Shown: positions 8,810 through 60,945 of the stretch, in pieces
Layout: every line of letters begins with the position of its first letter
How positions within the stretch are numbered: position 1 is the first letter of the stretch
From: Psammoneis japonica
Lineage: Eukaryota
NCBI GenBank assembly: GCA_008632985.1
Contig: QPGO01000047.1
Coordinates: forward strand, 264,608 to 328,607
Reading direction: 5' to 3'
Length of the DNA: 64,000 bases
Translations under genes and position numbers: made by a program
The notes under the pieces: model-generated
The model's input: the letters and a program-made list of their open reading frames with translations, nothing else
Database searches by the model: none
Told to the model about the DNA's origin: nothing

Positions 8810-10820
8810 GAAACTGCTGCAGCCAACACTTTGCTGTCTGGGTCATGTGCTGAAACATGACCCAGTTGTCATGCATGCATGCATGTAGACAGAAAAGAGT
8901 GGGGGCTTGGATCAGGGGACAGCAAGGCGTGTGTGGAGTCTGGCAGGGTCCTGGAGCAATCGGCTGTGGCTGGTCAGCAAGAGACTTCATGGTTGTGGCA
9001 AGACCGCTGCTGAGACTCTCTTTTGTGGCCCTGCCACTCCTGGAGTGGCGTGGCGGAGTGGTGAGTGATGCCAAATTGGGTGGATGACACAGGGTGCGGA
9101 AAGGATGATTTGGAAGCTTGTCACAGGGCAAGGGGGGGGCTGGGATGGAGCATCTTTGCCAAACAGCAAACAGCAGGCGCAAAGCATCCAGCGGGGCGGC
9201 GGCCCCCCAAAAAAGTCAACGACAAATGGGGGGCAGTGCCTGTGTGATGTGCCTCAGCACAAGGATGGCAGCAGGGGCAGACAAGCAAGGAGCTGGGAGG
9301 GGCAGTGGCTCAGGGAGAGTGGCCCAATGGAGAGGTGTTGAAAAACCCATGGGAGAGTCAGTGGCGGGGGGGGGGCAGCAGGGGTGACTTGGGCGCGCCA
9401 ATGGCGGTGGGGCATTTGAGGGGTGAGTGCAGAATGGGGTTTGCAGGTTCACAGTGCATGGTCAAGGAGCTTGTGCAACACCATGCCAAAGGGCCAAGGG
9501 CAAATTACATGAAGGATGGCAAAAAGGCCATCATGGGAGGTGTCGGGTGGGGTTGTTTTTTGTGTCCGAGGGAGGAAAAGACATGGCCTCCTGTGGATCC
9601 ACTGTGATGTTGCATGAAAGGCAAGAGATGGAGTTCATGTAATTGGGCAACATCAGGGGGCAGAGTTTGCATGGCTGCATGAGCTGGAAGAGGTCTGGTG
9701 GCAGCTGTTTGTGCAGGAGTGAGTGGGTGAGGGAGTGCGCACCAGCGGAGAAACTTGCAAGGGGTGGTGATGGCAGACAAGATGGGAGAGCACCATGGCT
9801 GCATGCACGCACTGCCAGAGCTGCCAGAGCTGCAGGTGGAAGTGTGCGCAACAAAGCACTTGGGACTCCACCAGTGGAAATGGGGTTGCAGGAGAGGAGG
9901 AGGGCACAGGGTGGAAAAAAGCTGTTGCAGCTGGGGGAGGCAGCCAGCAGCCACCAAGGTGCTGTCCCAGCGGCTTGCACAAAAATTGCCATCATGATCA
10001 AATGAATGTTCCAACAACAATGATGACCACTTTCAAATGGAGCTGTGGCTGCCACACTGCAAGGCATGAAAATCACTTGAGTCTCATCAAAGAAGGCACA
10101 AAAAAAGCCAAGCTGCGCAGTCCAGCCCATCTTCATGTGCCAAGTCAGGTGCACTGCCAGCTGTCAAGCATGCAAACATTGTTGTTGGAGGGTGCTTGTT
10201 TTTTTTTTAAACACAAGCAACAAAGAAATCCAGGACATGCCTTGGAGGGTTTGTCTTTTTTTGGGGCGTCAGCAACAAAAAGTTCCAGGGGGTGTCACAT
10301 TTTTTGCTGATCATGATCATGAATGGCGCTTGTCTTTTGGAAGCAACACCAAAGGCAATGCTTCTGTTGTGTGAGAAAAAAGCTCACATGGCTGTGTTCA
10401 CCAGAACTGGCTTTTTTGGGTGGCAAAGTTGCTTCCTCCTGAGAGAGTCATGAAAGTGCAAACCAAGAAGGCGCCTGTGACGACAAGCACCAGAAGACAT
10501 GGCAGCAGCAGGCGCAATGAAATGACCATTGGCTCTGACATGCTTCAATGTCCATCCAACATCCAAGTGTTGGCCTTGTTTGAATCTGTCTCTCGATTTT
10601 GGGTGAATGCAGCAAAAATCCTGCAATCGGAAGAGACTGTGCCAATCACATCCAGAGAGGGTGGTGCTCTGCTGGCTGCACCCCACACACCCACAACAGC
10701 AACAAATGGAGTGTCTGAATCAGTCATGTTGTTTGGGACGTGGTCAGCTTGCTGCTGAAGATTCTTTTTGGGACGCCATTGAGTTGCCTTGCTGGTGATG
10801 TGAGAAGTCGTTGGCATTTT
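8810..10820. other. TpA-depleted hypermutated domain, original content not identifiable
   Basis: Only about four TA dinucleotides seen by eye in about 2 kb. TG/CA rich, with dense spurious Cys/His-rich ORFs. Confidence 0.85.
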
Positions 10821-10821
10821 G

Positions 10822-10973
10822 CGATCTCAGATCGATGACATGACCCCGCGCAAAGATTGTGAGACGATCGCGCGATGTGTCGTGATCACGACTCTCGATC
10901 TCAGATCGATGACATGACCCCGCGTACTGCAACGATTCTGAGACGATCGCGCGATGTGTCGTGGTCACGACTC
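10822..10973. repeat. Tandem duplication of about 75 bp upstream of the SDR gene
   Basis: cgatctcagatcgatgacatgaccccgcg...gagacgatcgcgcgatgtgtcgtg at 10822 and 10896. The second copy has an extra TACTG. Confidence 0.9.
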
Positions 10974-11145
10974 GCAACGGCCCTTTGGACTTCGCGCTGT
11001 GCAGGAAATTCGCGTGACGCTTGATGCTTGATGACAGCGTGAAACCAAAAAATGCATGAAATTATCCTTTTTGTTCTTCTGTCACTGATCACTTCACTTT
11101 TATGCTCATTAATTCCTCATCTACACCAAACAACACACAATAATC

Positions 11146-11925
11146 ATGAAGCGCTTTGAAGGAAAAGTAATATTGGTCACTGGCGCCGCTTCAGGAATTG
11201 GTCTCGCTACGGCTCAAGAGTTTGCCCGGGAAGGAGGCAAAGTCATTGCCACCGACATTGACCAAGAGACACTCGAAAAAGTCCACAAGGATATACCTGG
11301 GATTGAAACAGCAGTCCAAGATGCCACAGACCCGCAAGTTTGGAAGTCAACAGTGAACGAAATTGTAGCAACGCATGGACGTTTGGATGTATTATTCAAC
11401 AACGCCGGAGGAGCTGGTACTTTTGCTTACATCGACGAAACCAGTCCGGAGCAACTTCGTCGCATCAATTCTCTTAATATTGACAGTGTCTTTTTTGGTA
11501 TGCAGGCTGCTATTGACGTCATGAAAAAGCAAGAAACGGGCGGCTCCATCATCAACAACTCGAGTGTGTTGGCAATAGTGGGCGTGCCGATTCTCGCAGC
11601 CTATTGTGGAACAAAGGGCGCCGTTCGTTCACTGACAAAAGCGACTGCTGTTGATCTTGCTCGTCGGGGTATTCCTATTCGTGTCAATTCCATTCATCCA
11701 GGTTTTGTGAATACTGCATTTGTCGGCCGTGGATTGGAGTCTTCGGCACAAGAGAAAGGACCCGAGGTGCAGGAAGCGGCAGCTGCGTTTATAGAGCAAA
11801 TACCCGCGGGCCGTGTGGGAGAGCCCCTTGAGATTGCTCGACCTGTCCTTTTTCTTGCAAGCGACGATGCTTCGTACATTACTGGATCAGAACTTGTGGT
11901 TGACGGCGGTTTGGTTGCAGCGTAA
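11146..11925 (+). CDS. Classical short-chain dehydrogenase/reductase (3alpha,20beta-HSD / cyclopentanol dehydrogenase-like)
   Basis: TGAASGIG, NNAG, catalytic YCGTK, IRVNSIHPG, YITGSELVVDGG. Intact, intronless, 259 aa. Confidence 0.95.
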   Translation: MKRFEGKVILVTGAASGIGLATAQEFAREGGKVIATDIDQETLEKVHKDIPGIETAVQDATDPQVWKSTVNEIVATHGRLDVLFNNAGGAGTFAYIDETSPEQLRRINSLNIDSVFFGMQAAIDVMKKQETGGSIINNSSVLAIVGVPILAAYCGTKGAVRSLTKATAVDLARRGIPIRVNSIHPGFVNTAFVGRGLESSAQEKGPEVQEAAAAFIEQIPAGRVGEPLEIARPVLFLASDDASYITGSELVVDGGLVAA

Positions 11926-15760: not shown

Positions 15761-16142
15761 GTCACTCTCGCACCCACCTTTCTTCACACCGAAATTGAAA
15801 TATTTCAATCCATGTAGCGCCACGGGCAAAAGATACTTCTATCATGACCAACCATTGGCCGTCAAGATGGATTAAACAATACAGTTAGCGCCAGTCTCGC
15901 ATGGTGGATGGTACGGTAGTGGCACAACTACACTGTACAGAAAAAATGCGAAAAGCCCCCCCTCCCTATAATACACGGGCAGTAAGTACACCGACGCGGC
16001 ACAATTGTGAGAAAGCCAAGGGTTCTATGCTCAAGAGACTGAAGACTGATTTATTTACGAAATTTCTTACTGGAAATGAAGACTTTTTAGTGAGATAACA
16101 GCATAGGCTGAACCTGTAGGAATCGATGTTGGATGCGAGGAT

Positions 16143-16790
16143 TTGATCTCAAAAAAATGTAGCGCGTGGGAAAATGGGAAAAGCAACCTCATCAAAAGCA
16201 TAGAGGCAGAAGGAATGATGGAGTGTTGCAATTCGATTTCTTTTTCCTTGCCATGGCCACTCTCTCTTCTCATGCAACGTGCAATTTCCAACTCTCCAGC
16301 TTCAATCATTGCCGAGTGCATGGTCCACATTTGACATGGATTGAACAGCCACATTCAGTGTGACAGCACTTTGCAAGTGTGCCAATGCTCATTTTGTGCA
16401 TCACACAATATTTTGAAAAGGCTGCTTTATGACCATGGATGTTCCAAGTCATCTCTGGCGGTGTCAAACATCACAGTTTGCAGTCAAACATGCCCATGAC
16501 TCTGGCTCACATGAAGGATTGTCTGCATCACAAAATTGTTCAAATGTGCAGAGCCACATTGATGGCTGCATCATCCAGTGTGTCTCTGGAAGTGATGCTT
16601 TTCAAGTTCTTTTGCCCGGTAGAAACAAGGTCATTCACATGCTGTTGAGATCCATGCACATGAGCCAGAGGTGGAGTTCCATCGTTTCTGTGCCAAGGTG
16701 CAAAGCCACAATGAACAGATTGTTCCTCAGTGTCGTGACTGCAGTCAAAAGACACAAGAACTGATGATGTGCAATGTGACATGCAAACAA
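16143..16790 (+). pseudogene. Degenerate MYND zinc-finger gene copy A (paralog of 32880-33600)
   Basis: Colinear with 32880-33510. Ends in VPQCRDCSQKTQELMMC and has stops and frameshifts. Confidence 0.65.
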
Positions 16791-17239
16791 TGGAGAGAGT
16801 TGAATGACACACCATTGCACTGTGCATTGCCGTCACCTCCAAAATTCTGCCCAACAGACGTCATCCAATGGCACCAGCACTCTCATCCAGGCCACAGCAA
16901 TGCACAAACAGCAAAATTGCAGCCATTGACAAAATTGGTTGACAACACACAGGTTTGAGTCCCTGCAAAAGATGATTGCAAAATGAAACACAAAAGCACA
17001 AACAGCTGCAATTGTGGAGATCTGGAAAGTTTGTGGACACACCAGGGCAGAAGAAGTGGCTGTTTCGCGGTCAAAGAATTTTCTCATTTTCCCATGGTGT
17101 GGTGTGGTGGGGGGGATCACAGATGAAAAATTGTTGCCATGCGCAACATCTGGTGTCCCATCACAGCATGAAAAAATTTGCTGTGAGAAAGGCGCTCTTG
17201 ATCACTGGAGTGTGCACTCTGATGAAACTGCGCCAGCAC

Positions 17240-18075
17240 CAAAAGCTTGCAGATGGCCTTCTTGGTCATCTTCAGTGGGTGCTGGACAATGCTTTGAGAG
17301 CCAAGGTTGAGTGCCAGTGCAAGGCTCTTCTTGCTCAGTTGTGGCCCACTTCACTTTGTCTCTTCAAGGATGATGTGTGACACAAAATTGAAAAAGTCAG
17401 GTTGATGGAATGAGCGCGCACACAGCACTGGACCAGCCTGTGCCAGCAAAAGCTGGCAGAGGGCCTTGGTTGTCTCTGGTGGGTGCCAGACAAAACTTTG
17501 ACAACCAAGGTTGAGCATTGCAGGGCCCATTTTTTGCAGCTGTGGTCCCACTTTTCACTTCATCCCCCCACTGGGAGGGGACATGACATTCCAAAAGTCA
17601 GAGCAGAGTGTGCCAAAAATGCAACCAACACTTGCATCTTGGCAGAAGCTGGCAGATGGCCTTGGTTGTCTTTGGCGGGTGCTGGGCAACACTTCAAAAG
17701 TCAAGGTCAAGTGCTGCAAGGCCCATCCAGAGCCGTTGTGGCCCTGCCATTGTTGATCCCCACCAGAGCGAGACTGCACCACAAAATTGTGAAAGTTGGG
17801 GTGGAGCAAGTGCAGCAGCCCAGCAGCCCAGCAGCATGGGACCAACCAGTGCAAAAGCAGCAGGGAGAGCACCCTGGTTGCCTCTGGCAGGTGCCAGATG
17901 GGCGACACTTTAACAACCAAAGTTGGGCCCTGAGACATGAAGCTTCAAAAGTCAGAGTGGAGTGAGCCCTGGGTGGGACCAGCCAATGCTAGCAAGAGCT
18001 GACAGATGGCCTTGGTTGCTTCTGATGTGGGTGCCAGGTGGCACTTTGACAGCCATGGTTGAGTGCTGCAAAGCT
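17240..18075 (+). repeat. About five diverged copies of a 70-80 bp core (spacing about 135-215 bp), degenerate internal-repeat coding sequence
   Basis: agctggcagatggccttggttgtct...gggtgcc...caaggttgagtgctgca at about 17244, 17451, 17647, 17871 and 17997. Translates as KLADGLG(C)LWxV. Confidence 0.7.
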
Positions 18076-18683
18076 TTTTTGTGCGATTGCACCACCGCTT
18101 CACTTTGTTGAGAAGAATGAAGAAGCACGTGCAACCTGCTCTGCATGGTGCAGGAGCTCATTTTCTTGCAAATGAGTGGACTGCAGGCAAAGCAGAAGCA
18201 GATTGCAGTGAGTGGGTTTCAAGCTGTTTGGCAAGAAAATGGCATGATGTCAGTTGTTGAGTTTTTCGGTGGCACTTGCTTGCGCATGCAGTGCTGAAGC
18301 GTCTTGATTCGTGCTTCCTGTCTCGATGATTCGTGCTTCGTGCGTCTGAACCGTGCCTCGACCGCACACATCCGAACCATGCATCATTTTACCATCATTC
18401 TGGAAATCTTTGCTCCGACTTGTCTCACAATTTCCTCACAACAGAAATCAAAGCTCGTTAATTTGTTGAAAATGCAGCAAAAACGTTTGGAGTTCAGCAC
18501 ACTCTCGACCTCGACCCTGAGCTTCAGGCTAGCGTGCACACGTTGAATTACAACTTGTCTAACCTTTCGGATCGCGTTGACACCGGCAGGGCTGAAGTTC
18601 AATACCGTGAGATTGCCTTTCATGAAAGCATCAGGTCGGCCATCAGTCGAGACCACTATAACGTAGCTACAGAATATTTTTGC

Positions 18684-19802
18684 AAACTATAAGTGGAGTC
18701 ATTGTCCTCTTGCCTTCCCTGCCTCGAGTTATCGCTTCCGTCTCAAAGCGTCGTATAATGTCTCAGTTTTATGATCCCTTACAAATATAGGGCCCTACTT
18801 CGTCATACCGGTAACTTTTTACTTGAATCTTTCAAGACGAGTGCGCGTTTCCACAACTGTCATTTCTATTACTTCTAGGAACACAGCAACACCCTAGAGA
18901 CGAAGAATATGCCAGAGATGAACGCCGTTTGACAATTCGAGTCCGCGTTGGATCCGCCTCCAATTATTGGTTCAGGAACAGGAACCGTACCAGTTGTGGG
19001 TGGTGCAACTGATGGTATAATAGAATGCTGATGAGAGGATGGAGTATTCGAAGGAAAGTCAGATGGGACAATGCAAGGAGCAAGACTTGCGCTTGGGACG
19101 CTAGAAGGATGATCCGACGGTTGAAGCAATGGTACTTCGCTCAAGCTTGGTTGAAATACTCGCTAGGAGCTCTTGATGGAGCCGGGCTGACACTTGGTTG
19201 TTGCGATGATAATTGTGATGACAATAGAGATGGTGCGGGACTGGTGGTGGGAGAACCAGATGGAGGACTTGTAATTGTAGGGTAGTTTGTTGGAGCCACA
19301 GAAGGTGACAAGGAAGGACGTTCACTTATCGAAGGTGCTGGACTCACACTCGGAAATATTGATGGCGATGCACTAACCGAAGGCGCAATACTTACAGACG
19401 GAGCCGGAGAAAAGTCAATGAGACACCCTGCAAGATTTTCAGAAAGTCCCCTTTACAAACTCGCAGTGTTCTCCCTCGTACATTTCCATGCAGTCGCACC
19501 CCAGGTTTGGAGGATCGCGACATGTTCCAAAGTTTGTGCAAAATGAGTTAGGGTCAGAGACATTGCAAAATGATGTTGGGAGCCCAGCTACAACCTTTGG
19601 CGAAGCTTCGCAGTCACAACAGTACTGATCTTTTTGGGCGCCGCTCCTAACACAGGTTCCGCCGTTCAAGCACACGTTGCCGTCTGGACAAAGCGCAAGT
19701 TCGCATAATTGTCCTGACGTACCCGCAGGACACCGACAAAACTCTTCGCCAGTTGCAATCACGCTGCAGATTCCTCCATTCAAACATTCGAGACGGCATG
19801 AT
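18684..19802 (-). pseudogene. Partial duplicate of the 3' half and downstream flank of the EGF protein gene (34081-35249)
   Basis: Near-identical sequence with a 15-bp deletion (FCDQI lost), a +1 shift giving a stop at 19439, and a 7-bp deletion near 19154. Confidence 0.92.
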
Positions 19803-20834: not shown

Positions 20835-21421
20835 TTTTGAGGAGCTATTGTGAGGCGAGCGCGCGCGGCTGCATGAAGTTAGGCGGGACTCATTCAGTCA
20901 CGTATGCGCACACACCCTCCGAACGCCACTCACCATGAGAATCGGAACGGCATTTCATGCTGTTGCCAAACCTTTTCAACAACAGCAGTGCTTTAGAATA
21001 GTTTCTACCATAATATAGAAACTATTTTCATCACTTGTTTGAAGGTAATTGCTCAATCGAAAGGTCAAAAAATGGATTTTGTAATTGCATCACCATCCGC
21101 AGCTCTTTTTCGTGTGCTGTCGCGATGCAATCGCACTGCGCTTTCATGACACTGACTCGTTCTTTTTATTTGATACGCTCGTTTCATACACTCACATGGG
21201 GAGCATTTCGATCATGTTAAAAGCCCCAACAAGGAACACCGGCTCTTAGTTTCATGTCGACATTTGAGCCATTTGTCTGCGGCCGACATTTCTGCATCAA
21301 TCGAAATGGGGCTGTTGCATGTCGTACACTGTCTTTTGGATCAAGCCAAGCAACGGATGGTCGATTTCATTGACAATGAGGATCATGGTGTGCATTGTTT
21401 GATGGCAGACAACGGCAAGTG

Positions 21422-21815
21422 CAGACGCGTTCCAGGTCTAGGTGGGACCTCGTGCTGCTGAACTGTGACATCGATAGTTTTTTGAATCACGTCGTATGTC
21501 GCGCACGTAGATTTCTACGTGATTTTTTTGATGTTTTGTGTCATTTTACGGTACACTTATTGAGCGATCCGTCCAACAACTTTTGACATTTTTTGTTACA
21601 GCGCGATTCTATAATGTCTTAAGAATCGCGTAGGGCAGGTGCATTTGCAAAAACGTCGAGTGGTAAGAGGCATAATTGCACCACAAACTTGGCCGTTTGT
21701 TTGATGTTGAAGATAAATATATCCATTAATTAAATTCTCGTACTACGGAGCTCGCACGTAGAATTCTACGGGCCCAATGTCACACGGAGTCCCACCTAGG
21801 GCTGGAACGCGTCTG
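21422..21815. mobile_element. Non-autonomous TIR element (Tc1/mariner-type MITE), 27-bp TIRs, inferred TA target-site duplication
   Basis: CAGACGCGTTCCAGgtCTAGGTGGGAC (21422-21448) is the reverse complement of 21789-21815 with 2 mismatches. Flanks are TG on the left and CA on the right. Confidence 0.75.
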
Positions 21816-24800
21816 CATGATTTGTGGAGCTCACAACTTGCTGCCGCGAAAAATGATGACACTCACCTCGAACGCAAGCAACTGATGACACTTTCTTGCC
21901 ATTTTGCATTTTTCTTACTCATTGTTGAAAGCTTTAGGTGCTTGTCGCTTTGTTGTGGTTCTGCGCTGCATTTTTAGCCGTCAATGTCCAATCTGTCGTC
22001 TCGACTTCTCACGGTGAAAATCGGGATGGATGACATGAATCCAGGAGGAGGTTGGGGTCGGAAAATTCGCCAGCCGGTGGTTTTACAATCTCTTGACGGT
22101 GGGTGCCACTTTTGTGATGTGAAACTCTGCTTTTTTTGTTGAGACGTGTGCTGAAAATGTTCTTTGCTCATCATCCAAAGCTGACGCAGAACCAGTCTTT
22201 CTCGCACGTTTGCTGCCAAGAATGCCGCGGGATTTCACACAGCAATTTGACCAACGATTTGTTCTGGGACACAAAGTGAAAGAGATGCCGAGTGTTGGAG
22301 ATGCGGTTGCTTTTCTTGTTCTTGATCTTGATGCTTTTTGATGCACTCATGACACGCACCTCGGCACCGGGTCATGGAGCTTCTAGATGGGGTCCGTGTT
22401 CGGGATGCTCCCTCAATTCGGCATTCATTTGTGTTGCCGTGACATCTTTGTCCACACCCCGGAGCTTCAATTCCGTCAACCAAGCATCAGCACTGACCCA
22501 ATGCCCAACAAGAGACAACGTTTTCCATGGCTTTGTTGCATCGTCGAACACTGCGTGGATTGTTCTTTGTTTTGGTGCCATTTCATCGAATCGGCTGCAC
22601 CCAATGCACAAAGCAGACCAACTGGGTGTGGGTGGTTCGCAAACACTGATTGGGAGCAGCGAATGTTGTCACCAGCAAAAGTTGTTTGCATCGGCATGCC
22701 ATTGTCGCACCCATTGTCATTTTTTCCCGCGGTGCACCGCGGTGTCCAGATGGAAGCGTCGACGAGTCCTGAGCAGGCGGGACTCAAAACTTCATGCAGC
22801 CACGCGCTGGCCTCAGTCCTCATTGCTCAATGAGAGATGCTCATGCCAGTGCAATCTTGCGGATCTTGCCATGTTGGTTGGGTCTTGAAGGCGGTGCTTG
22901 TCATCAACCCGGAACTCCTCATTCAGAATCTTGGCTCAACTCAAGAAGCAGTCACATGCCAGTGGGCGGTTTCACTGCTTTTTTTGTTTCCTCGGTTGCG
23001 TTTTGTGCATCAAACAGAATGCCAAAACCAGAGACAAAGTTGCCCAGAAGACTCCAACACATGTCCCGGTGATGCCAAGACAAGAGTTGTTGAGTGCACC
23101 ATGCAGTGATGAGTTGTCGTTGTCCTTCTAAAAGTGAGGCACTTGCGCTGCCTCTGCTGGATTTTTGCAATTGGAGCTTGCCGTCTGACCACATTTTCGT
23201 CATGCCCCACACACTCCACTCAAACGACAATGTGCTCCTTCTCACCAAGGAATTCGAAGTCACTCTTTTTCCATGTCTTTGGCTCCAGCTTGGTGTCAAT
23301 CCATTCGGCCATTTCTTCCGTCACACTTGTGCGCAATGCCGTCATCGCTTCCACGTTGAGATGATGAACCTGCCAACCCGAGACTGCACCACTTCAAACT
23401 CATGATCGTCCTCTTTTGATGTGACAGTGGAGCATTTTGACAGCAACGCTGACACCAATGGAGTCACCTCCTCCAGCTTGTCCTTGTCTGCTTCAGGTTG
23501 CCAATCGCAAATGTCAGAAAGGGGCGCTGGCTCCAGTTGGTGAAAGACCTCCTCTGCTGCAATCGAGTCCGGCAGTGATTGCGGCATTTCAAACAGGTGC
23601 AAATGGGAATCCATGGCTGCAATGGCCAACACTTTTTGCCATGTCTTGCTGGGCTTTCGTTGCTCCACAACTTTCATGGAGAAAATCAATTCGCTCATCA
23701 GCGGCAACTTGAGCACTTCAAGGTCCTTTGCCTCTGGTGGAATGAATGTGCGTCAAGATCGATTGAGGATGGAGGATTTGTGCTGCACTTCCTTCATTTG
23801 CACTTGCTTTGAATGCTTTTGAATCATTTCATGAACATGCCAATTGACCTCCTGGTCCATTTGGGGGAATGCACAGACTCGAAACCTGACAAAAGGTCCA
23901 CCTGTTGAGGCAAACGCTCCAAGAGCAAATCCAGCAGTTTGCTTTGACAATCCACTTCATTGGTCATGACTGAATTGGCAAGATGCAGCAATTCTGGTGA
24001 TGCCTTGTTCCACAACTTGGATTGCAACTTTGCCATGACACAACAAAGCATCTCTGCCAACCACAAATCACGCACATCTCGTTCTGCCACTGGGCTTTTT
24101 GGAGATGGCTTCGACAGGGATGACAGCACCATGCTGAGAGAAGCATGGGGATGGCAAGGGGACACAAGAGGTGTCAATTTTCTTTCTGGAGTGCAAGCGG
24201 GTGAAGCAAAAACAACGCCTTGCTGTGAACTCGTTTCATGAGAAGACCAGTGACAAAGGCAAAAAAGACTTGTGAGCCATCAATGCATCCCTTGGACTTG
24301 CCCTGCGCACGGGCGACCTTCGACTCCACCCCCTTGAGCTCTGCAATGACACCTTCACCCTTCGCGTCCATTTTTCACAAAAGAGACTTGAGCTCCTGCT
24401 GGTGGTTTGTCAACATGCTTGCCTGCCTTGCCGAGGCAGATTCTTTCTTTGAACTTTCCTCAAATCTCCAGGAAACAACAGACTGAGCATCAATGAGAGA
24501 TGTGAGCATGCCTCACATCTTTCTTCTGGTGCATCCAAACTGTTTCACCATGCTCCTTCATTCTGCACTGCAGCCGCCGTGTGGTCCTTGTGACTGCGCT
24601 CTTCCAACAGACGAGTCTGCCTCCCAGCAGCCGCGCGCTTGGTTTGCATGAGCCACGCCGAGAGCCAATCGATGGGCATGCGGGGTTTCTTGCAAACCAG
24701 AGTTCATGGCATCAACACACAACAGTCATTTTGTTGATGCTGCCTGGAGCTTCTCTGAAAACTCTTTGCGGCATTTCTCCCGAAGTCTTTTGGGTGCACG

Positions 24801-24997
24801 TGGTTTTTGGTCTTCAGTGTTTCCCTCAAAAGGAGGATGAGAAGGAGCACCGCCATGCATGTTGGACAACCAGATCTGATGCTGCTCACTGCATGAGCCA
24901 CAGCCCACCTGCATGAAGGGACCATGCAGCTGAACAATCCAATGCAGTGTGCATGCAGACAAAAGGTTGTTTTTGTCACGCCCTTTGTGACATTTGA

Positions 24998-25487
24998 GGT
25001 GGCACGGGTGCAAAAGTGGGCCAGATTCTACGTGCGCAGAGCTTAGCATGTTTTCTACACAAATCGCCAAAGTCGGCTCGCCAACTTGAACCCTCTCCCG
25101 GACGATGGAAAGTTCGACATTTCAAATGACAAAGTGTTTCGACTGCTTGGTTGCACTCTCCTCGACTTGTTTGGGGAGAGAAGTTACAAGTTTTCACAGG
25201 TTTCTGAGGATGCATGACGAATCTAATCAGAAAGGTGCCGAAATCGCGACGTTCGACTTTTAAAGAGCCGTGCAAAATGAGAAACCCATGGAAACTTGTA
25301 ACTTCTCTTCACAAACAAGTCGAGGGGAGTGCAATCAAGCAGTCCAAACACTTTGTCATTTGAAATGTCCAAGTTTCCATCGTCCTGGAGAGGGTTCAAG
25401 TTGGCGAGCCGACTTTGGCGATTTGTGTAGAAAACATGCTAAGCTCTACGCACGTAGAATCTGGCCCACTTTTGTACCCGTGCCACC
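24998..25487. mobile_element. Non-autonomous foldback element with about 208-bp TIRs and TTGA 4-bp duplication (Kolobok-like if originally TTAA)
   Basis: 24998-25205 is the reverse complement of 25281-25487. Termini are GGTGGCAC...GTGCCACC with TTGA on both sides. An empty-site paralog lies at about 25783-25888. Confidence 0.85.
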
Positions 25488-28400
25488 TTGAAGGCTGCAA
25501 CACGTTGCCGTGATGCATTGACTCTTGTTGGCAGCTGTGTGTTGCACTCCTCCCCATGTGTCACGCGTCCATGCGGCTCTTTACCAACGTGTGCTGACAC
25601 TGCACGGTTTTGGCAGAACAGTGTGGGTGCGTGCAAAGGAACATGCAGAACTGCACAGAGTTTTGCGCGTTCGACAGTGATCAACGTTGCTGCAGACAAC
25701 TCCCACTCAGGGTTTCGAACCCCTGGCCTCCTGCCCAATGATTGCGAGATGAACCACTCCGCTGTGAATTCACAACGCAGCACGCATGCAGACAAAAGGT
25801 CATTTTTGTCACGCCCTTTGTGACACCCAAAGGCTGCAACACGTCGCGCCGTGATGCATTGGCTCTCATTGGCAGCTGTGTGTTGCACCAACTGAATTTT
25901 TTTTTTTGCACGTTCGTGCACCACCCCACATGTTCCTTGTTGCACAAGAAAAAAAGACTTTGACCACAGCAAGCAAACAGTTTGCGGCAGTGTCAATGTT
26001 GACAATCAAGCGGCAATCACATCTGAAGAGTCTTTTTGTTCTTGAACCCTGTTGGAAGCATGTGGCACAGCAATTGCCGCTTGAATTTTTCCTTCAGTTG
26101 CTTTTTTCCCCATCCACTGCTTCTCTTTCATTTTTGCTGTTGTTGCCTCCATCCCAATCGAAGGTTGCGAATGCCTCTGTGACCAAAGCATGCAAAAGTT
26201 TCGCGCGTTCATTGAACCATTCAACAAAATTGGTGGTGTGGATGGAGTTGCCTGTGGACATTCATTCTGGTTGGTCAAACACCGCCATGCTTCGTGCTTT
26301 TGTGTGGCCAGAACATGCTGCCGACAGCGGCGATTGCTCAGATGCGACTTCGTCAATGTCCCAATTTGAGTTGCAAGCACACATGGAATGCATTGATCAA
26401 TCTCATGGGAAGGACACCAGTTGGTGATTGCCGCTCAAACTGTCAATTGTTCCACTTTTGCTGACGCTTTTCTTGCTCTCCATTAAATTTTTGGCGGTGC
26501 GTCGACCGGCAATGCCGTTTCTGATGTTCAAGTTGGAGTTCATTGGACACAATCACATCTGTTCACTCTTGTGTGCATCATGTGAGATGACAGGGTGAGG
26601 TGTCTGGATTCTTGGGGTGGTTCTGTGTGAGCATGAACGAACACAGATCTGCCTGGAAGTGGCTTGCCAGCCCCCCAACTTGACAGCCAAATCAATTTGG
26701 ACTGCAAAAAGATTCATCACATGTTGTTGTCAAATCAATGGTGTCTCATCATGAGTCCTCAATCAAACAATTGTGGGTGATTGGAACAAAAAGCAAAGTT
26801 TGGCAAGCACTTGAGATGCCGGAAGCTGTTGGGCCAGTTGTTGTGACGGACCGGGCTTGTCTGACTGAAGCAGCAGACAAAAGTCTCCAAGTCATGCAGC
26901 ACCTCTTAGAGATCTGTTGTTGATGAAACATGCATCTAAGCTGGTCATCTGGGGCTCCTGAGCTGGTTTGTCTTAGAAGGTGGTGCCAATTGCTGGCAGG
27001 GAGCGGCTCCTCAGACATCAGATTGCGCAACAAAATTTTTGTCTGTGCTTTGCTGCTCTTCTGATTCTCATTCTTTCCAAAACAACAGGCAAGAAAACTT
27101 CATCCTGACCACAAAGATGTTGGAAACAATTGATTTTGTGAGCACAACAAAAGAAAATGTCACAAAACTTGCCCTCAAGTGCTCACCTGAGTCCCTCTTG
27201 ACACATGTTGCAGCATCCATCTCATGATTGGAAGCATGAAAAGTGGTGCTCTTGTCCAAATTTTGCCACGCTGCTTTTCAAAACCATTTGGTGGCTTCAT
27301 CTTGACCCAAATCCAACAAAGCAGGGAGATGCAGGCAGCTGAAACTCTGTTGCATGGCAACTTGGACTGGCAACAAGTGGGATTTTGCACGGGTCCTGCA
27401 CGCACAACATGCGTTTGCAAGTGGAAAACAAGAAAGAATGTGCGACAGCACTGCAATGTCCGATGAGGACAAACTTGCTTGTTGCTGCCAGAATCATTGG
27501 ACACTCATCAATGGCATGCTTGTTGTTGACAAGATGAAGGCAACAAGGCATCAAAGCATGTGGCAGCAACAAGGATCATCGGGGGTGGCATGGACAAGTT
27601 TTCAATGGTGGTGACGGACCAAAACCACGAAGAATGAAAGTGTGGAGTGAGATGTGCAGCAAAGAAATGGAAAAACAATGAGAACCCAGTTGGGCCCCCG
27701 TGTTGACTCATGGGCATCTTCTGCTTCCTTTTCTCTTGGTCGCACAGATCAAGAGACACTTGAAAAAGAGAAAAGGCTTCTCATCAGAAATGTCGTTGAT
27801 GTGCATGGTGCTCCGGGAGGCAACTTGAGCTTGCACCTCATTTTCTTCTGCCAACGCATGATCATTTTATTTGCAACCAATCTATTTGGGGGGCAATCGA
27901 GTGCCTGTGTGATTCTTCTTTTTGCCGCCGATCTCTTTGCACGACAATCGAGCACCTGGAGCCATTTGAAAAAGGGAAATTTTGTGATTTGCTGACATCC
28001 TTCTTGCAAGAGGCAAGATTCGGGGCAGAAGAATGCCATTCTAGCCCTGTCCCCAGCATTCAAAATGCACTGTGTGGCTTTCATTGTGCACGTCTTGAAA
28101 ATGCAAGCACTGACATTGCAGTCTAGATGGCGCGGCTGGAGGAGCCCTGTGGCAAGTTTGTTGTGTTGTGAGAATGGCTCTCTCGGCCTTGGACAAGGAA
28201 GAATCAGTGGAAAATGTTTTATGACAAATGTGGTTGCATCGTTTGCTTGTCACTTTGGTGAGAAGAGACTGTTGCAGCGCATGTTCTTTTGGTTGGATGT
28301 TGATGCGACCGCCTTTGCAGCACTGCCAAACGGCTTCCTTCGGGTCAAGACGAATTTTGACAAGGAAGTCACTCAACTTGTTGAGGTTGACGCATGAGGT

Positions 28401-38309: not shown

Positions 38310-38499
38310 GCCGTTGTCGAGTTACTACACCATGAAGAGCACAACAACAACAATAAGGTTGACCAAGAGCAGTGCGGGCAGCTACGCAGCGTCAATAACA
38401 TCGTGTGATGTGGGCGATGCGGGATGCGGGGCGGGGGGAAAAAAGCGAGCGACGCACGGGCGATGTCGTGTGTCGATAACCTGTTGGCCACTTGTACAA

Positions 38500-57827: not shown

Positions 57828-59779
57828 TTTTTCCTTCGGGAGCTTGGGAGTAGATGCCCAAACATTCTCAACTTTCAAAGCGTCATGCTGTACAAGGAAA
57901 GGCGGCTCGGATCGTCATTGGGTAGTCGCATACATCCTCAGACCTTTTGCATTTTCACGTAGTATCTGAAGTGCTAGAAAGTTGTTCTTTGTAGATACGG
58001 CCTACGACTTACACATGCATTGGTGGAGCGATGGACACTGCCAAGCATGCGAACTATGATAGAGATAGATATATTTGATTTGTATTTAAGTAGGACACCC
58101 ATTGCATCTAACAACTAACGAACTCGGAACTTACACACACTGCATCTAACAACTAACCCAATTCACCGTATGATTTGGATCGGGACACAAGGAACGTCCC
58201 CGACGCTTGACATCTTGCTCACCCGCACTCGCACCCAGATTAAAAGCTCCTCCACGAGTTTTGAACTCTCGTCCACCAATGTTCTGGATACAAAACTATT
58301 TTGGCGTCCGAAACGGCATGCATCGTCTCGCATTTTTCATACAGAGCACGAGCCTGAGTTTGAACAAGTGTGACAAAGCTGTTTGTAGATTCTCGAATTG
58401 TCGTCATCATACATTCTTTCCAAATGCGAGCCTGAATTCGTGCATTTGTGACAAAGGTCTTCAAGGAGTCATGGATGATTTGGTGCAAGCTTGAAGCGGT
58501 TTCACGAACAGTCTTGGTCTTCAAAGAATCATGGAGAAGTGGTCTCACTGGTGAAATTTGACAAAACCTTGCAAGGGTCGGAGAATGTCAGGATGGCCAT
58601 CATTGCGGTGGGCGTGTGCTCTCGAAGGATTTTTTGAAAACGGCTGGACAAATCATTTTCGTGCTCGATGGACAAGTCAAAGGAGGACTGGCAGACAGAG
58701 CTCGAGGCTTTCAGAGGCTTCATCTGGCATGTCGTCTGCAGGCGTGCAGTTTTGAGTGGCATTGTGAAGAAAGGTGGAGTCGCAGTCCTTGTGGTCAAAA
58801 GACACACAATGGATGCTCGACCTGATTTGAGCTTCAATGGGCATGCTTGCAGGCGTGGTCTTGTGCAGGATGTTCTGGAGGCAGACAAAGGAGTCGTCAT
58901 GGCTTTCAATCAACGCAAATGATGTGGTTGCAGCCAAAGCAATGCGAGGCATGTCTTGACTTGCTTTGCAGCAATCGACACCTGTTGCACTGCCACATCA
59001 AAGATGGCCAAAAGCGGACCAGCAAAGGGACCAGTGGCGCAAACATCGTGGTTGTAGCCAGAGCAATGCGAAGCATGTCTCTTGGCTTGCTTTTGCAGCA
59101 ATCGACACACCTTGTGCCATCGTGTCAAAGACGGCCGACAGTGGGCTGGCAAAGAGACCAGTGCTCATGGCACCAGCAGCAATGCCAAGGCAGATGATGG
59201 CAAGATTCTTCATGAAGGCAATCATGGTGATGACTTTGCTGTGCTGCTTTCCTTGTCAAAGAAAAGATTGTGAGAGAATCGACAGCAGAAACTGGGGCAT
59301 CCATCGAGAGGAAGCATCAACGTCAAGTGCCAGACACGCAGATTTCTGTGTGAAACACACCAAAAACACATCTCCCCCAGCACATTGATTGTGTCGCCAG
59401 AGAGAGGCAAAGATGGTGTTGTCACCTTTTGCAACATTCAACACTGGGCTGGATGTGATGTGTGGCTCTCCTGAAAAGAACCGGGGCTGCAGAACAACGG
59501 TGGGTTTTGGCTTTTTTTCTCAGCCAATGTTGTGATGAGGTCTGAGGGAGATTTCAAAGTGATGGCGATTTAGCTCATGCTTTCTTCGGCCATGCAATGA
59601 GATGCAAGAGATCACATTCCACCACACGTTTGTTTGCTTTTAAATCAATTGACATTTTTGCTCGAATCACAATGCTGCCCCTGTGACTGCCGCACTTCTT
59701 TCATTTCCCTGCAGTCATGAACACGACCATTCTATTTGTCATTTCTGCATCCTTTTGTGCAAACAACACAGGTGCTTCT

Positions 59780-60206
59780 CGGCATGAGATTTTGGGACTG
59801 AAGGACAGACAATGTGACAGACATTCGAGTCCCTGACACGGACGCGAAGTCATGCCTGTCCAAAACACCAGAAGAAGTCCTGGCAAGCCACGAACGTGAG
59901 AAAAAGCGCAAGCATCTCAAGCCCTGCCTTGAACAACACCCTCATTTCACGCCATTCGCAGTGTCATGCGATGGACTGTTCGGCAAGGAAGCCAAGGCGA
60001 TGCTCCGCAAGATGGCGTCGAAACTGTCAGACAAGTGGCAAAAGCCATGCTCTGAAGCATGCGGCCATGTCAATGCGAGGATGAGCATCACCATGGTTCG
60101 GGCAACCCACCGTTGCCTCTGGGGATCCCGCGTTCCCGCCTCTCAGATCAGCTCCAAGCGACCCCAGTGGGAAGATGGCACAGGTCTGTCCCTTTACAAA
60201 CACTAA
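59780..60206 (+). mobile_element. 3' end of a non-LTR retrotransposon ORF, restriction-like endonuclease (CRE-like)
   Basis: FW...DIRVPDTDAKS(C)...EREKKRK(H)L..CLEQ..HFTPFAVSCDGLFGKEA...KW.KP(C)S...RMSI..VRATH.CL.GSR. Confidence 0.85.
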
Positions 60207-60945
60207 AGGACCCCCGATTCAATCGACCTCCGCCTACCCGGACAGTGTGCCAACCGACTATCCACAGTGACTACTGACACTGCGCCTAGAAGACAACAAA
60301 AACCCGCCATCATGTTGGACACGGCGCCAAAATCAACTCGAATTTCGCGCGCACAGCCTACGACAATTGCGCGCGACAACTACCCCCTATCGTACGACTA
60401 CATTAACTATATAATCCACTTTTCCCTGCGTAATAGACCCTAAAACATTGAGCTACTAGTAGAGATGATATCAAAGCAAAACCAAGTTTACAAATCATCG
60501 CCAACCGCTACATCAAATATGGCATCATCGTGTACCGGTAGAAATCGTGGAATGACGAGTCAACCGACGAATGACCTAACTACTCTCACACTACTTGCAA
60601 AAACGACCTCGGTCGCACAAAACTCAATACAACTCAAGTGAGTGGCCTGCTACACAGTTACCCTCTCTCGCGCTTCATACATGTTCATACTGGCCTCTAA
60701 CAATTAACTGTATCCTCGAATCGCGACACACAACATAGGAACTTTTTTTCTTCCCCCCTTTTCCTTTACAGATATGCAAATTGAACAAGACCAACGGACC
60801 CGGTTTCGCGTGAAACGATGGGTCAATTCCATGACAGATACGACGGCTTCTGTAACCTACACGCGACAGAGAAGACAAACGTACATATTTCTTGTAAGAG
60901 CTGCACAGTCATTGGCCTATGACAATGCACGACCAGCCCCAAGCT

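Follow-up and report, generated by a model that had tools for sequence, protein, structure and literature searches.

About one-third of the 64-kb window (the whole stretch of DNA analysed, 64,000 nt) consists of sharply delimited blocks in which nearly all TA steps have been mutated to TG or CA. The best explanation, to which we assign a probability of about 70%, is a cumulative, in-place and domain-restricted TpA hypermutation, read here from its end states and probably of the same kind as the TpA>TpG/CpA hypermutation measured directly in mutation-accumulation lines of Bigelowiella natans, where 230 of 231 single-nucleotide mutations in two viral regions changed A to G or T to C, each of them at a TpA step (Mettrop et al., bioRxiv 10.64898/2026.01.13.699255). 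In diatom-like nuclear DNA, A:T pairs at TpA would be converted to G:C on either strand, giving TA>TG or TA>CA, and the changes would accumulate until TpA had almost gone; the same domains would shed around half of their CpG through the ordinary 5-methylcytosine route (CG>TG/CA). The direction of the change, its dinucleotide specificity, its use of both strands, the independent hits on each copy, the sharp limits and the lethality to the element are all directly apparent in the data. The core of the original prediction, a locus-targeted A:T>G:C process that hits TpA in both strands of genomic DNA, is supported, with ordinary CpG decay alongside it; its TadA/ADAT-like DNA adenine deaminase and its defence role are candidate readings.

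Seven TA-poor blocks were called from sliding windows, a list of TA gaps and a two-state HMM whose parameters we chose. Pooled, they hold 74 TA in 23,107 non-N bases, an observed/expected ratio (o/e) of 0.05 compared with 0.64 in their neighbours; individual blocks range from 0.04 to 0.08 and the seven normal segments from 0.51 to 0.68 (40,583 bases with 1,817 TA counted per segment, 1,810 of them with both flanks readable). The longest TA-free gap spans 1,900 nt (23129–25029, in block 4), against a maximum of 227 nt in 200 mononucleotide shuffles. Block edges are steps within less than about 100–300 nt, and G+C is nearly equal inside and outside (0.497 versus 0.473). Sliding-window and per-segment ratios thus bear out the original prediction of TG/CA-rich blocks among neighbours with normal TA, and the approximately four TA that it saw in 8821–10800 are exactly four, at 8886, 9506, 9640 and 10208. 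Its count of about seven blocks also agrees with ours, although only six of our blocks fall within its range: block 1 lies outside it, and the earlier number was reached because a TA-bearing island (24997–25582) splits block 4.

The content of the blocks ranges from dead copia retrotransposons and fragments of genes to sequence that cannot be recognised, and for most blocks a foreign or repeated origin is not evident. Block 1 (1–3117; 13 TA, TA o/e 0.08, CpG o/e 0.59) carries the 3′ part of a dead copia polyprotein on the forward strand, with a reverse transcriptase at 1–834 (RVT_2 match, E 6e-26) and a C-terminal piece at 1147–1506, separated by an N gap (837–1146). Blocks 2 (8670–11062; 6 TA, TA o/e 0.05, CpG o/e 0.45) and 7 (58411–60194; 4 TA, TA o/e 0.04, CpG o/e 0.59) lack recognisable coding content and recognisable content, respectively. 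In block 3 (16202–18529; 7 TA, TA o/e 0.05, CpG o/e 0.29), the left 580 nt belong to a repeat, Y, and degenerate tandem units occupy 17228–18074. Block 4 (21976–28609) has 25 TA, 13 of them in an island at 25029–25582, and is interrupted by an inserted foldback (palindromic) element at 24997–25488 that retains its TA and CpG, with the joint at 24995→25491 and an empty-site copy at 25773–25888. Block 5 (30985–33576; 7 TA, TA o/e 0.04, CpG o/e 0.32) holds mutated copies of repeats X and Y and a weak MYND-finger remnant (ORF 33110–33673). Block 6 (38496–43064; 12 TA, TA o/e 0.04) shows the strongest CpG decay of the blocks (o/e 0.26) and contains a single FG-GAP_2-type repeat at about 38545–38680 on the forward strand, in which FEHN stands in place of the FEYN of relatives, together with a reverse-strand remnant of a copia reverse transcriptase (40129–40647). 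Among the 140 block ORFs of at least 80 aa, 139 gave no Pfam match. The earlier statement that transposons or pseudogenes occur in most of the blocks whose content can be identified holds, but just three of the seven offer such identifiable content.

First, the direction and specificity of the change are visible in the block-1 reverse transcriptase, which we compared with the consensus of 57 relatives over 194 conserved columns. It departs from consensus at 55 columns, 39 of which can be explained by a one-step path: 10 TA>TG, 10 TA>CA, 3 CG>CA and 16 others. Among the inferred A:T>G:C steps, 20 of 21 fall at TpA, with one A>G and no T>C outside it, so that the excess of TA→TG/CA over other transitions expected by the original prediction is present. 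All eight Tyr columns conserved in 120 relatives have been replaced, by Cys in three cases and His in five; neither residue occurs at these columns in 114 of those relatives, while five have a single Cys or His there and one has two. Two more conserved Tyr columns, in the pieces at 1147–1506 and 40129–40647, both read Cys, and Tyr makes up 0.7% of the block-1 domain compared with 3.6% in relatives. The catalytic motif YVDD has become HVDD, and the element is therefore dead. Nor is its TA poverty a family trait: none of 80 related metagenome loci is TA-poor, all having a TA o/e of at least 0.44, contrary to what equally TA-poor relatives would have implied.

Second, repeats present at two loci record the same conversions, as the alignments of paired copies confirm for the TA/TG, TA/CA, CG/TG and CG/CA differences already noted. 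Repeat X has an unmutated copy in a normal segment (15784–16068, forward strand), which serves as the reference state, and a mutated copy in block 5 (32556–32847, reverse strand). Where the normal copy has its 17 TA, the block copy reads 7 TG, 7 CA and 3 other, with no TA left; where the normal copy has its 12 CG, the block copy reads 5 TG, 4 CA, 1 CG and 2 other. By comparison, a control pair with both copies in normal DNA kept 36 of 42 TA and 47 of 57 CG. Repeat Y has copy A across the edge of block 3 (16143–16783, forward strand) and copy B in block 5 (32880–33517). The first 60 nt of copy A retain TA (16160 and 16201), which places the block edge inside the repeat. The two block copies of repeat Y show 11 adjacent TG/CA double differences in 621 nt, whereas controls of 1,073 nt and 374 nt show 0 and 2, respectively; separate hits thus postdate the duplication.

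These observations weigh heavily against an intrinsic composition in which the blocks are foreign, for example viral, DNA that avoids TA by selection, such as to escape a nuclease or restriction. Most blocks do lack recognisable content, and the targets described for B. natans in the available part of the preprint are integrated viruses, but here the TA-free state is derived and destructive (conserved Tyr replaced in 8 of 8 columns, YVDD turned into HVDD), two loci with the same repeat differ in that one is rich in TA and the other has none, and the 80 relatives include no TA-poor locus. We regard selection of this kind as extremely improbable.

Third, the dinucleotides balance. Relative to normal DNA, the blocks have lost 4.16 percentage points of TA and 2.83 of CG and gained 6.44 of TG+CA (TG o/e 1.64 versus 1.16; CA o/e 1.71 versus 1.17), and the pyrimidine–purine total is unchanged (24.01% versus 24.55%); TA and CG have therefore turned into TG/CA. 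Because the TpA and CpG routes both yield TG/CA, together they explain the composition of the blocks. CpG o/e separates the two classes completely, at 0.26–0.59 in all seven blocks and 0.90–1.06 in all seven normal segments. By the ratio of dinucleotide frequencies, CpG survival is about 0.49 and TA survival about 0.07, that is, some 93% of TA has been lost. CpG loss is patchy within blocks (o/e 0.0–0.9 per 500 nt), whereas TA loss is uniform, and CpG survival depends on context (lowest at ACGT, 0.24; highest at GCGC, 0.91). Deamination of 5-methylcytosine, as in methylated transposons, accounts for the CG>TG/CA half of the pattern but cannot remove TpA, the loss of which is the more complete. 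The CpG loss suggests that the targeted domains are, or formerly were, methylated silent chromatin; copia elements of Phaeodactylum bear H3K9me2/3 and H3K27me3, according to the portion of that study available (PMC4504042).

The shared domains also raise the idea of a single dual A/C deaminase of the ADAT2 type that converts TpA and CpG, both self-complementary pyrimidine–purine steps, to TG/CA, with the CpG loss not derived from methylation. TA and CpG losses coincide in seven of seven blocks and jointly balance the TG/CA gain, and the B. natans preprint refers to ADAT2 enzymes for which A as well as C in DNA is a substrate of deamination (10.64898/2026.01.13.699255). However, related copia loci have lost CpG without losing TA (CG and TA o/e of 0.20 and 0.44 in L004, 0.15 and 0.60 in L056, and 0.41 and 0.60 in L006), CpG loss varies inside blocks in which TA loss does not, the attacked base is the 3′ one in TA (the A) but the 5′ one in CG (the C), and, as far as the preprint text at hand goes, the B. 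natans hypermutations are A:T>G:C with C>T not in excess. One enzyme for both losses is accordingly improbable.

Fourth, both strands are used equally. TG and CA products are even (10:10 in the block-1 reverse transcriptase, 7:7 in repeat X) and their order along each of the seven blocks is that of random interleaving (runs test, z −1.15 to +1.04), so mutation has occurred in place, on both strands and without long single-strand tracts. Editing of retroelement RNA or cDNA before integration by an ADAR- or APOBEC-like enzyme, with blocks arriving already mutated, could produce sharp edges and fits the copia remnants in two blocks. It would leave single-strand products, unlike the equal, interleaved TG and CA on the element's coding strand, and the loss of about 93% of TA would take many rounds of an element that HVDD has killed. 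Moreover, the blocks include a host-type FG-GAP fragment and much non-element DNA; terminal repeats, sought at the edges of the six blocks with both edges inside the window, were not found, and one edge lies within repeat Y; and the B. natans mutations occur in integrated single-copy DNA, in the preprint's available account. We consider arrival of already edited blocks very improbable. ADAR and AID/APOBEC, which hypermutate viruses and retroelements in animals, do share with the process here a neighbour-dependent deaminase hypermutation directed against invading nucleic acids. ADAR converts A to I on double-stranded RNA and AID/APOBEC converts C to U on single-stranded DNA; ADARs are not known outside animals. 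They act on RNA or replication intermediates and leave strand-biased tracts, whereas here resident chromosomal DNA is hit on both strands equally and tract-free. The ADAR neighbour rule, with U preceding the edited A, matches TA, as discussed in the B. natans preprint where available (10.64898/2026.01.13.699255).

TA loss also depends on the flanking bases. On the premise that the former TA contexts of the blocks were those of present normal DNA, TA survival is 0.010 in RTAY (3 versus 560), 0.044 in mixed flanks (22 versus 960; a per-strand model predicts 0.047) and 0.219 in YTAR (33 versus 290), so that loss is around 20-fold more complete in RTAY than in YTAR (Fisher p 2.5e-12). In the R-TA-R context, RCAR gained 21.5 and RTGR 12.2 per 1,000, an asymmetry confounded by CpG-derived products. 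C is mildly preferred as the base that follows the mutated A, as seen in the GTAA>GCAA and GTAG>GCAG gains and in 16 of 34 inferred sites, a Tyr-based list that is skewed towards TAY. Tentatively, and at slightly less than even odds, we propose that an ADAT2/TadA-like deaminase, brought to silent chromatin, would turn adenine in DNA into hypoxanthine, working on one strand per event and about three times faster at 5′-TAY than at 5′-TAR. The candidate family is that of the TadA and ADAT2–ADAT3 deaminases of tRNA adenosine-34, together with the DNA base editors evolved from them. In the natural TadA/ADAT target the edited A stands between a U and a C (U-A-C-G), and in the fastest contexts here the A is likewise followed by a pyrimidine, which is mostly C; the difference is that their natural substrate is tRNA, and here it would be DNA.

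Sequence cannot separate adenine chemistry from thymine chemistry, since every A>G reads as T>C on the complementary strand. The thymine of TpA in silent domains could instead be modified or oxidised, to 5-hydroxymethyl- or 5-formyluracil or a base-J-like product of a TET/JBP-type dioxygenase, and then mispair with G or be misrepaired, giving T>C at 5′-RTA. The flank effect fits equally well when viewed from the T strand, with RTA mutating faster than YTA, and the self-complementary TpA puts a target on both strands, consistent with 1:1 TG:CA. Dinoflagellate DNA carries 5-hydroxymethyluracil preferentially at TpA, and 5-formyluracil forms mispairs with G. On the other side, modified thymines have no support in this host, the mild preference for a 3′ C after the mutated A resembles the TadA tRNA target, and the B. 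natans authors, in the available preprint text, favour adenine deamination as a hypothesis. We therefore hold the thymine route to be unlikely.

Fifth, the blocks appear to be real sequence. Contigs built independently from a public run (X1) match the window over 30973–31623 with one difference and over 32158–32962 with none, that is, over 650–805 nt, at a flank-like depth of 74–85; the run represents one sample, possibly the assembly's own source, and so is not independent of the window. At the level of contigs, this run agrees with the assembly at block sites, where the original prediction would have been contradicted by TA. An artefact of sequencing or assembly, or a modified but not yet fixed base that is called G or C over a TA that is truly present, has in its favour that the assembly behind the window is scaffolded and has an N gap and that the runs found cover that one sample as contigs. 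Strand-wise misreading, however, would give all-TG and all-CA read classes and not a fixed random interleaving, normal neighbours were read with identical chemistry, and two loci of one repeat are fixed for different TG/CA choices. Given the equal, randomly interleaved TG and CA and the concordant contigs, an artefact is exceedingly improbable.

The process resembles the repeat-induced point mutation (RIP) of ascomycete fungi in being a domain-scale transition hypermutation of one dinucleotide on both strands that kills transposons and leaves a sharp-limited signature. RIP requires duplicated sequence and a sexual cycle; its C>T at CpA makes TpA and lowers G+C, the opposite direction to the process here, which removes TpA and leaves G+C as it was. 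A MITE at 21420–21817, the block-4 foldback (24997–25488) and the region at 28.7–30.7 kb have very high summed read depth and normal TA. Block 3, which is saturated, has a summed depth of 45–69 against about 60 in its flanks. It seems that copy number alone is not the trigger, since three very-high-depth stretches keep their TA, and in this respect the earlier name "reverse-RIP" is misleading.

Such targeted hypermutation has been reported once before, in 2026, in the unrelated alga B. natans. In both, A:T>G:C occurs solely at TpA, giving TG or CA by strand, and is confined to certain loci, forming TpA-poor, CpA+TpG-rich clusters in an otherwise ordinary genome, as far as the available part of the preprint describes it. 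The B. natans genome has 124 TpA-poor clusters, with RT and DDE domains enriched in TpA-poor CDS, and its authors propose, as a hypothesis, an ADAT2-type adenine deaminase with a defence role (both in the preprint's available part, 10.64898/2026.01.13.699255); for the present process too, we infer a defence role. Against the preprint as available, the present case differs in host (diatom-like, Stramenopila, versus a chlorarachniophyte, Rhizaria), in recognisable targets (copia elements and a gene fragment versus NCLDV/virophage) and in saturation (TA o/e 0.05 versus Rho 0.45 in the B. natans NCLDV region), and the B. natans process was measured directly whereas here only end states are seen. 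The protein matches fit the diatom guessed in the original prediction and not Bigelowiella. The B. natans cut-offs, applied with Rho for CA+TG taken as the mean of both, which may differ from the preprint's definition, select 20 of 64 1-kb windows and five clusters in 64 kb, against 124 genome-wide there. CpG loss in the same domains and a flank effect are seen here; the words "CpG", "context", "flanking" and "trinucleotide" do not occur in the preprint text available (10.64898/2026.01.13.699255). A literature search found no description in diatoms, as the original prediction had supposed, but its claim to novelty is lowered because the preprint had measured the same TpA>TpG/CpA hypermutation and published the ADAT hypothesis. 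What the present locus adds is that the process extends to another eukaryotic supergroup, comes close to saturation, coincides with CpG decay in its domains, reaches retrotransposons and gene fragments as targets, and depends on the flanking bases.

A scan of dinucleotide observed/expected (o/e) ratios in 500-nt sliding windows over the whole window reveals runs in which TpA o/e falls to 0.00–0.12 alongside TG/CA ratios of 1.6–2.0. The window holds 1,897 TA in total and 42 TA-free gaps of at least 150 nt, the largest spanning 1,900 nt (23129–25029); shuffling its mononucleotides 200 times never produced a TA-free gap longer than 227 nt. A two-state hidden Markov model on TA positions, with parameters of our own choosing (4.5% versus 0.3% TA per base, switch probability 1e-4), called seven TA-poor blocks, numbered left to right: block 1 (1–3117), block 2 (8670–11062), block 3 (16202–18529), block 4 (21976–28609, interrupted by a TA-bearing island at 25029–25582), block 5 (30985–33576), block 6 (38496–43064) and block 7 (58411–60194). 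Together they contain 74 TA in 23,107 non-N bases. Per segment, TA o/e is 0.04–0.08 in blocks and 0.51–0.68 in the seven TA-bearing neighbours taken here as normal DNA (pooled, 0.05 versus 0.64), and CpG o/e is 0.26–0.59 in all seven blocks and 0.90–1.06 in normal segments (pooled, 0.44 versus 1.00). Pooled TG and CA o/e rise to 1.64 and 1.71 in blocks, from 1.16 and 1.17 in normal DNA, and G+C is 0.497 versus 0.473. The original prediction, that TA-depleted blocks lie beside genes of normal TA, is thus confirmed in a more extreme form than claimed, and its count of about four TA in 8821–10800 is exact; seven blocks are found, of which block 1 falls outside the range first given (8810–60210). 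Edges are step-like in all seven blocks, TA spacing passing at 30984/30985 from about 12 nt to 599 nt.

In these blocks TA and CG have been turned into TG and CA, on four independent lines of evidence: mass balance, two repeats and a protein consensus. First, TA makes up 0.32% of dinucleotides in blocks versus 4.48% in normal DNA and CG 2.73% versus 5.56%, with TG at 10.83% versus 7.12% and CA at 10.13% versus 7.40%; TA and CG are therefore down 6.99 points and TG and CA up 6.44 points, within a pyrimidine–purine total of 24.01% versus 24.55%. Second, repeat X has a normal copy (15784–16068) and a reverse-strand copy in block 5 (32556–32847). The 17 TA of the normal copy read TG at 7 sites, CA at 7 and something else at 3 in the block copy, with none kept, and its 12 CG read TG at 5, CA at 4, CG at 1 and other at 2; the TA/TG, TA/CA, CG/TG and CG/CA differences originally seen between paired copies are thereby borne out, 14 of 17 TA and 9 of 12 CG having been converted. 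A control pair, both copies of normal composition (18715–19802 and 34154–35248), retained 36 of 42 TA and 47 of 57 CG. Third, repeat Y (16143–16783 and 32880–33517), compared between its two block copies, shows 11 adjacent TG/CA double differences per 621 aligned bases, against 0 in 1,073 and 2 in 374 in two normal control pairs. Each double difference is readily explained as one ancestral TA or CG resolved separately in each copy, so that the hits postdate the duplication.

Fourth, block 1 starts with part of a copia polyprotein (RVT_2, E 6e-26; C-terminal piece at 1147–1506), whose only named eukaryotic relative of the reverse transcriptase (RT) comes from Cylindrotheca; a second copia RT remnant lies in block 6 (40129–40647, minus strand). 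Compared with a consensus of 57 relatives at 51–62% identity, the block-1 RT departs at 55 of 194 conserved columns. All ten Tyr columns conserved in these relatives are altered (four to Cys, five to His, one to Phe), the catalytic YVDD has become HVDD, and Tyr makes up 0.7% of its residues, compared with 3.6% in those relatives. One-step paths exist for 39 of the 55 differences: 10 TA>TG, 10 TA>CA, 3 CG>CA and 16 others. Outside TpA there is just one A>G and no T>C, placing 20 of the 21 inferred A:T>G:C steps at TpA; the excess of TA>TG/CA relative to the family consensus on which the original prediction turned is therefore present. At the eight Tyr columns conserved across 120 relatives, the block-1 RT has Cys or His eight times out of eight; 114 of those relatives have none, five have one and one has two. 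Two further conserved Tyr columns, in 1147–1506 and 40129–40647, read Cys.

TA-poverty as a trait of the element family was considered and ruled out. A search for metagenome loci carrying related RTs gave 574 pattern matches, of which 471 were confirmed; among the best 80 of the 471, the minimum TA o/e is 0.44 and the majority lie at 0.6–0.7, so relatives are not equally TA-poor. The TA-depletion signature is absent from these best 80 loci and from the 120 protein relatives.

The A:T>G:C change at TpA acts on both strands equally, site by site and without tracts. The order of TG and CA is random along every block (runs test, z −1.15 to +1.04), and the test detects no strand-coordinated TG or CA tracts in any of them. 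ADAR and APOBEC hypermutation follows a similar deaminase logic but acts on single-stranded intermediates, for which strand-biased tracts are expected rather than this random order and products split 10:10. The same even split, on the coding strand of the element, makes it unlikely that RNA or cDNA was edited before integration, as do the near-complete loss in a dead element and the presence of non-element DNA in the blocks.

A sequencing or assembly artefact, or a modified base that was misread, is also unlikely. Logan-built contigs of the public sequencing run X1 match block sequence with one difference over 30973–31623 and none over 32158–32962, at depths of 74–85 (53–62 over adjoining normal DNA), although the three public runs share one sample, were used in contig form and may be what the assembly itself was built from, and so give no second-chemistry confirmation. 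A strand-dependent misread would produce all-TG or all-CA molecules instead of the random order, and the fixed TG/CA choices differ between two loci of a single repeat.

One X1 contig, over 16905–18071 in block 3 and at a flank-like depth of 43.8, departs from the window sequence at 17 positions, 16 transitions and one transversion, all in 17708–17990. Four pairs of these (17708/9, 17829/30, 17899/900 and 17980/1) are adjacent CA/TG double differences, and position 17990 is TA in the window and CA in the contig. The contig could come from the second haplotype or from a paralogous unit of the tandem array; were it allelic, the process would have acted since the two haplotypes diverged.

The surviving TA reveal a strong effect of flanking bases. 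With 100 nt trimmed from each block edge and the foldback island of block 4 excluded, 58 survivors remain to be compared with contexts in normal DNA: 3 against 560 for RTAY (survival 0.010), 22 against 960 for mixed flanks (0.044) and 33 against 290 for YTAR (0.219), the difference between RTAY and YTAR being highly significant (Fisher p = 2.5e-12). If the strands are hit independently, with separate rates for 5′-TAY and 5′-TAR, survival counts in the palindromic classes imply rate-times-time values of 2.3 and 0.76, respectively, and this per-strand model predicts a mixed-site survival of 0.047, against the 0.044 derived from counts. The products point the same way: at R-TA-R sites, RCAR, the TAY-strand product, gains 21.5 per 1,000 four-letter words and RTGR 12.2, most asymmetrically where C follows A (GTAA>GCAA, GTAG>GCAG), a comparison that is confounded by CpG-decay products and assumes that blocks once resembled normal DNA. 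A pyrimidine follows the mutated A at 25 of 34 directly inferred sites, among which the Tyr-based ones are biased to that outcome.

TpA loss is cumulative, about 93% complete and confined to domains that have also lost CpG, the conversion of CG to TG/CA occurring in the same seven blocks. Expressed as frequency ratios, survival is about 0.07 for TA and about 0.49 for CpG, which means that a site received at least threefold more hits from the TpA process than from CpG decay. In four-letter words over all blocks, CpG survival ranges with flank from 0.24 (ACGT) and 0.31 (ACGA) to 0.69 (GCGG) and 0.91 (GCGC). The CG half of the pattern, with its 9 of 12 converted sites in repeat X, resembles decay driven by 5-methylcytosine. 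One enzyme attacking TpA and CpG alike would account for both losses at once and is unlikely: CpG loss is uneven within blocks and TA loss uniform, several of the best 80 related copia loci (L004, L056 and L006) have lost CpG without TA, and the hypermutations described in Bigelowiella natans are A:T>G:C only (bioRxiv 10.64898/2026.01.13.699255).

Content is recognisable in three of the seven blocks: copia in block 1, FG-GAP and copia in block 6, and weak MYND in block 5. Copia remnants thus occur in two blocks, a host-type fragment (FG-GAP) in one of these and the weak MYND remnant in a third, and nothing recognisable lies in the other four; the earlier observation that most blocks with identifiable content hold transposons or pseudogenes stands, content being readable in 3 of 7 only. 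Among 140 stop-to-stop ORFs of at least 80 amino acids in the blocks, 139 match no Pfam family; the remaining one is a weak, below-cut-off match to zf-MYND (E 3e-4), and the ESM Atlas returned a sub-threshold MYND lead only (0.89) for this block 5 ORF. Rfam gave 0 matches over the whole window. No terminal direct or inverted repeats were found at the edges of the six blocks checked and no LTR pairs in a self-comparison of the window, and the left edge of block 3 falls about 60 nt within repeat Y; the blocks thus have the appearance of domains, not of individual insertions. At the left boundary of block 6, a single FG-GAP_2-type repeat reads FEHN, against FEYN or YQYN in five and YEWN in one of six full-length repeat alignments to a relative, and the edge may cut through a former gene. 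A full FG-GAP gene (60949–62097, minus strand) adjoins block 7.

A 302-codon open frame (38038–38943, plus strand) runs across this boundary of block 6: TA is normal in the first half of the frame and absent from the second. Residues 170–214 form one FG-GAP_2-type repeat, 64% identical to P0404 repeats. The control pair used for repeat X is a 1.1-kb segmental duplication, 91.6% identical, over part of two EGF-domain genes.

Normal DNA includes a heme-lyase gene (3344–4168) whose best named relatives are diatom proteins, those of Seminavis, Cylindrotheca, Fragilaria and Pseudo-nitzschia at 51–61% identity, followed by Proboscia, Bolidomonas, Thalassiosira and Attheya. An intronless short-chain dehydrogenase (SDR) gene (11146–11925, plus strand) shares 60–64% identity along its entire length with bacterial SDRs and glucose 1-dehydrogenases, the best match of any kind reaching 80%, and is possibly of bacterial origin in the alga. 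No match comes near identity, that 80% being the highest; given this and the diatom relatives of the heme lyase, B. natans, whose proteins are public, is rejected as the source of the window.

Three stretches of far higher depth have been spared. Summed contig depth, which is no copy number, is about 60 in normal DNA, 45–69 in block 3, 104–468 in most of block 4 and 126–215 in block 5. A 398-bp MITE-like element (21420–21817) with 35-nt terminal inverted repeats, 89% complementary, lies 160 nt left of block 4 and is nonetheless TA- and CpG-rich; summed depth over it reaches 137,795, compared with about 60 close by, and one contig jumps from 21421 to 21817. Within block 4, a palindromic foldback element some 492 bp long (24997–25488) is inserted in a short repeat (flanks 24940–24992 and 25491–25547; empty-site copy 25773–25888). 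Its arms are near-identical over about 190 nt, TA and CpG are kept, summed depth is 8,481–44,659, and contigs link 24995 to 25491 without the element. It looks like a young insertion in an old mutated domain; just two of the differences between its arms are TA/TG or TA/CA, so it provides no useful clock. Finally, 28675–30675 has normal TA and CpG at a summed X1 depth of about 700–790, raised roughly 10-fold; in the public run X2 depth is raised only over about 29.3–30.7 kb (1,370–1,575) and is 61.6 in 28675–29341, and none of the eight ORFs of the stretch has a Pfam domain. Three very-high-depth stretches that keep their TA argue that repetition alone is no trigger, with the caveat that summed depth is not copy number, and that young insertions within a block escape erasure or have yet to undergo it. 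Fungal RIP, the closest classical analogue, converts CpA to TpA and depends on duplication. Here, by contrast, TpA is lost, CA and TG rise and G+C does not fall; very-high-depth stretches are spared and block 3 has flank-like depth, as far as depth can stand in for copy number.

The closest known parallel is TpA hypermutation in the chlorarachniophyte B. natans, as described in a preprint (bioRxiv 10.64898/2026.01.13.699255). Fifteen mutation-accumulation lines yielded 302 nuclear single-nucleotide mutations, 231 of them in an integrated NCLDV (186 kb) and a virophage (25 kb); of the 231, 230 were A>G or T>C, each at TpA. Mutations per site per generation came to about 6e-7 in these regions and 3.5e-10 elsewhere (a rise of about 1000-fold), and those in the viral regions arose in only some lines (bioRxiv 10.64898/2026.01.13.699255). 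Its genome of about 95 Mb contains 124 clusters of TpA-poor, CpA+TpG-rich 1-kb windows, its TpA-poor coding sequences are enriched in RT and DDE domains, and an ADAT2 homologue was proposed as the candidate enzyme (bioRxiv 10.64898/2026.01.13.699255). The present window is alike in that A:T>G:C is confined to TpA (TA o/e 0.05), that TpG and CpA are both produced (10:10 in the RT, 7:7 in repeat X) and that step-edged blocks stand amid neighbours of normal TA. When the cut-offs of the preprint (Rho TpA ≤0.43, Rho CpA+TpG ≥1.52, the latter taken here as the mean of two Rho values) are applied, 20 of 64 1-kb windows pass and form five clusters of at least three windows, a density far above that reported for B. 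natans (5 per 64 kb versus 124 per ~95 Mb). The words 'CpG', 'context', 'flanking' and 'trinucleotide' do not occur in the text of the preprint (bioRxiv 10.64898/2026.01.13.699255). What our analysis adds to it is the diatom-like host, the saturation of TA loss, the CpG decay in the same domains and the flank rule. A full-text literature search, with a coverage mostly outside subscription journals, found no other description of TpA-erasing hypermutation, in diatoms or elsewhere; the claim of novelty must be lowered, the original interpretation, drawn from sequence alone, being in essence that of the B. natans preprint.

The mutational reading, A:T>G:C at TpA on both strands and confined to domains, is well supported; genome defence is a putative role. 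As to chemistry, the favoured candidate is an ADAT2/TadA-like enzyme that would be recruited to silent chromatin and there deaminate adenine in DNA to hypoxanthine, so that A:T>G:C changes at TpA on either strand would accumulate in resident domains; we give this a probability of roughly 0.45. The tRNA target of TadA has U before the edited A and C after it, which the neighbour rule found here (T before A, preferably C after) recalls. The ADAT2 candidate in B. natans also favours deamination, as does the fact that, to our knowledge, no enzyme class besides adenine deaminases gives A>G. Were the T of TpA modified or oxidised instead and then mispaired, the sequence outcome would be identical; we regard this as the less probable chemistry. 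The broadest form of the deamination reading is itself rather doubtful: a natural, chromatin-guided DNA adenine deaminase preferring 5′-TAY might be common to diatoms and chlorarachniophytes, either ancestral to SAR or spread among marine algae, and be recruited to CpG-methylated silent domains of transposons and integrated viruses, where TpA erasure would amount to permanent, heritable silencing. Were this so, Tyr codons, TAA and TAG stops, TATA boxes and TA/TTAA integration sites would be erased along with TpA, and the machinery could be traced as deaminase paralogues common to both signature genomes and absent from signature-free algae.

These blocks have consequences for annotation. Because they have few TAA and TAG (about one of each per 1,000 triplets, against 9–10 in normal DNA) and 5.98 ORFs of at least 80 amino acids per kb against 3.45 (1.7-fold), they may draw spurious gene calls, and divergence-based ages of transposons within them would be far too old. 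The flank rule, by which RTAY is lost far more fully than YTAR, constrains any candidate enzyme, and co-located CpG loss offers a testable tie to DNA methylation and heterochromatin. We know of no natural DNA adenine deaminase that was available when adenine base editors were evolved from TadA, and a natural TA-specific one would be widely interesting.

Before 2026 no cellular process was known that strips selected genomic stretches of their TpA, and the sole report concerns one chlorarachniophyte. Its saturated signature in a diatom-like genome means that the process reaches beyond a single alga, making possible a comparative search for a DNA-level A:T>G:C editor in which the enzyme could be found by comparing signature-bearing and signature-free genomes. 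Its targets extend beyond giant-virus inserts to ordinary retrotransposons and gene fragments, and the process is no one-species curiosity, occurring also in a second eukaryotic supergroup, among whose members are major primary producers.
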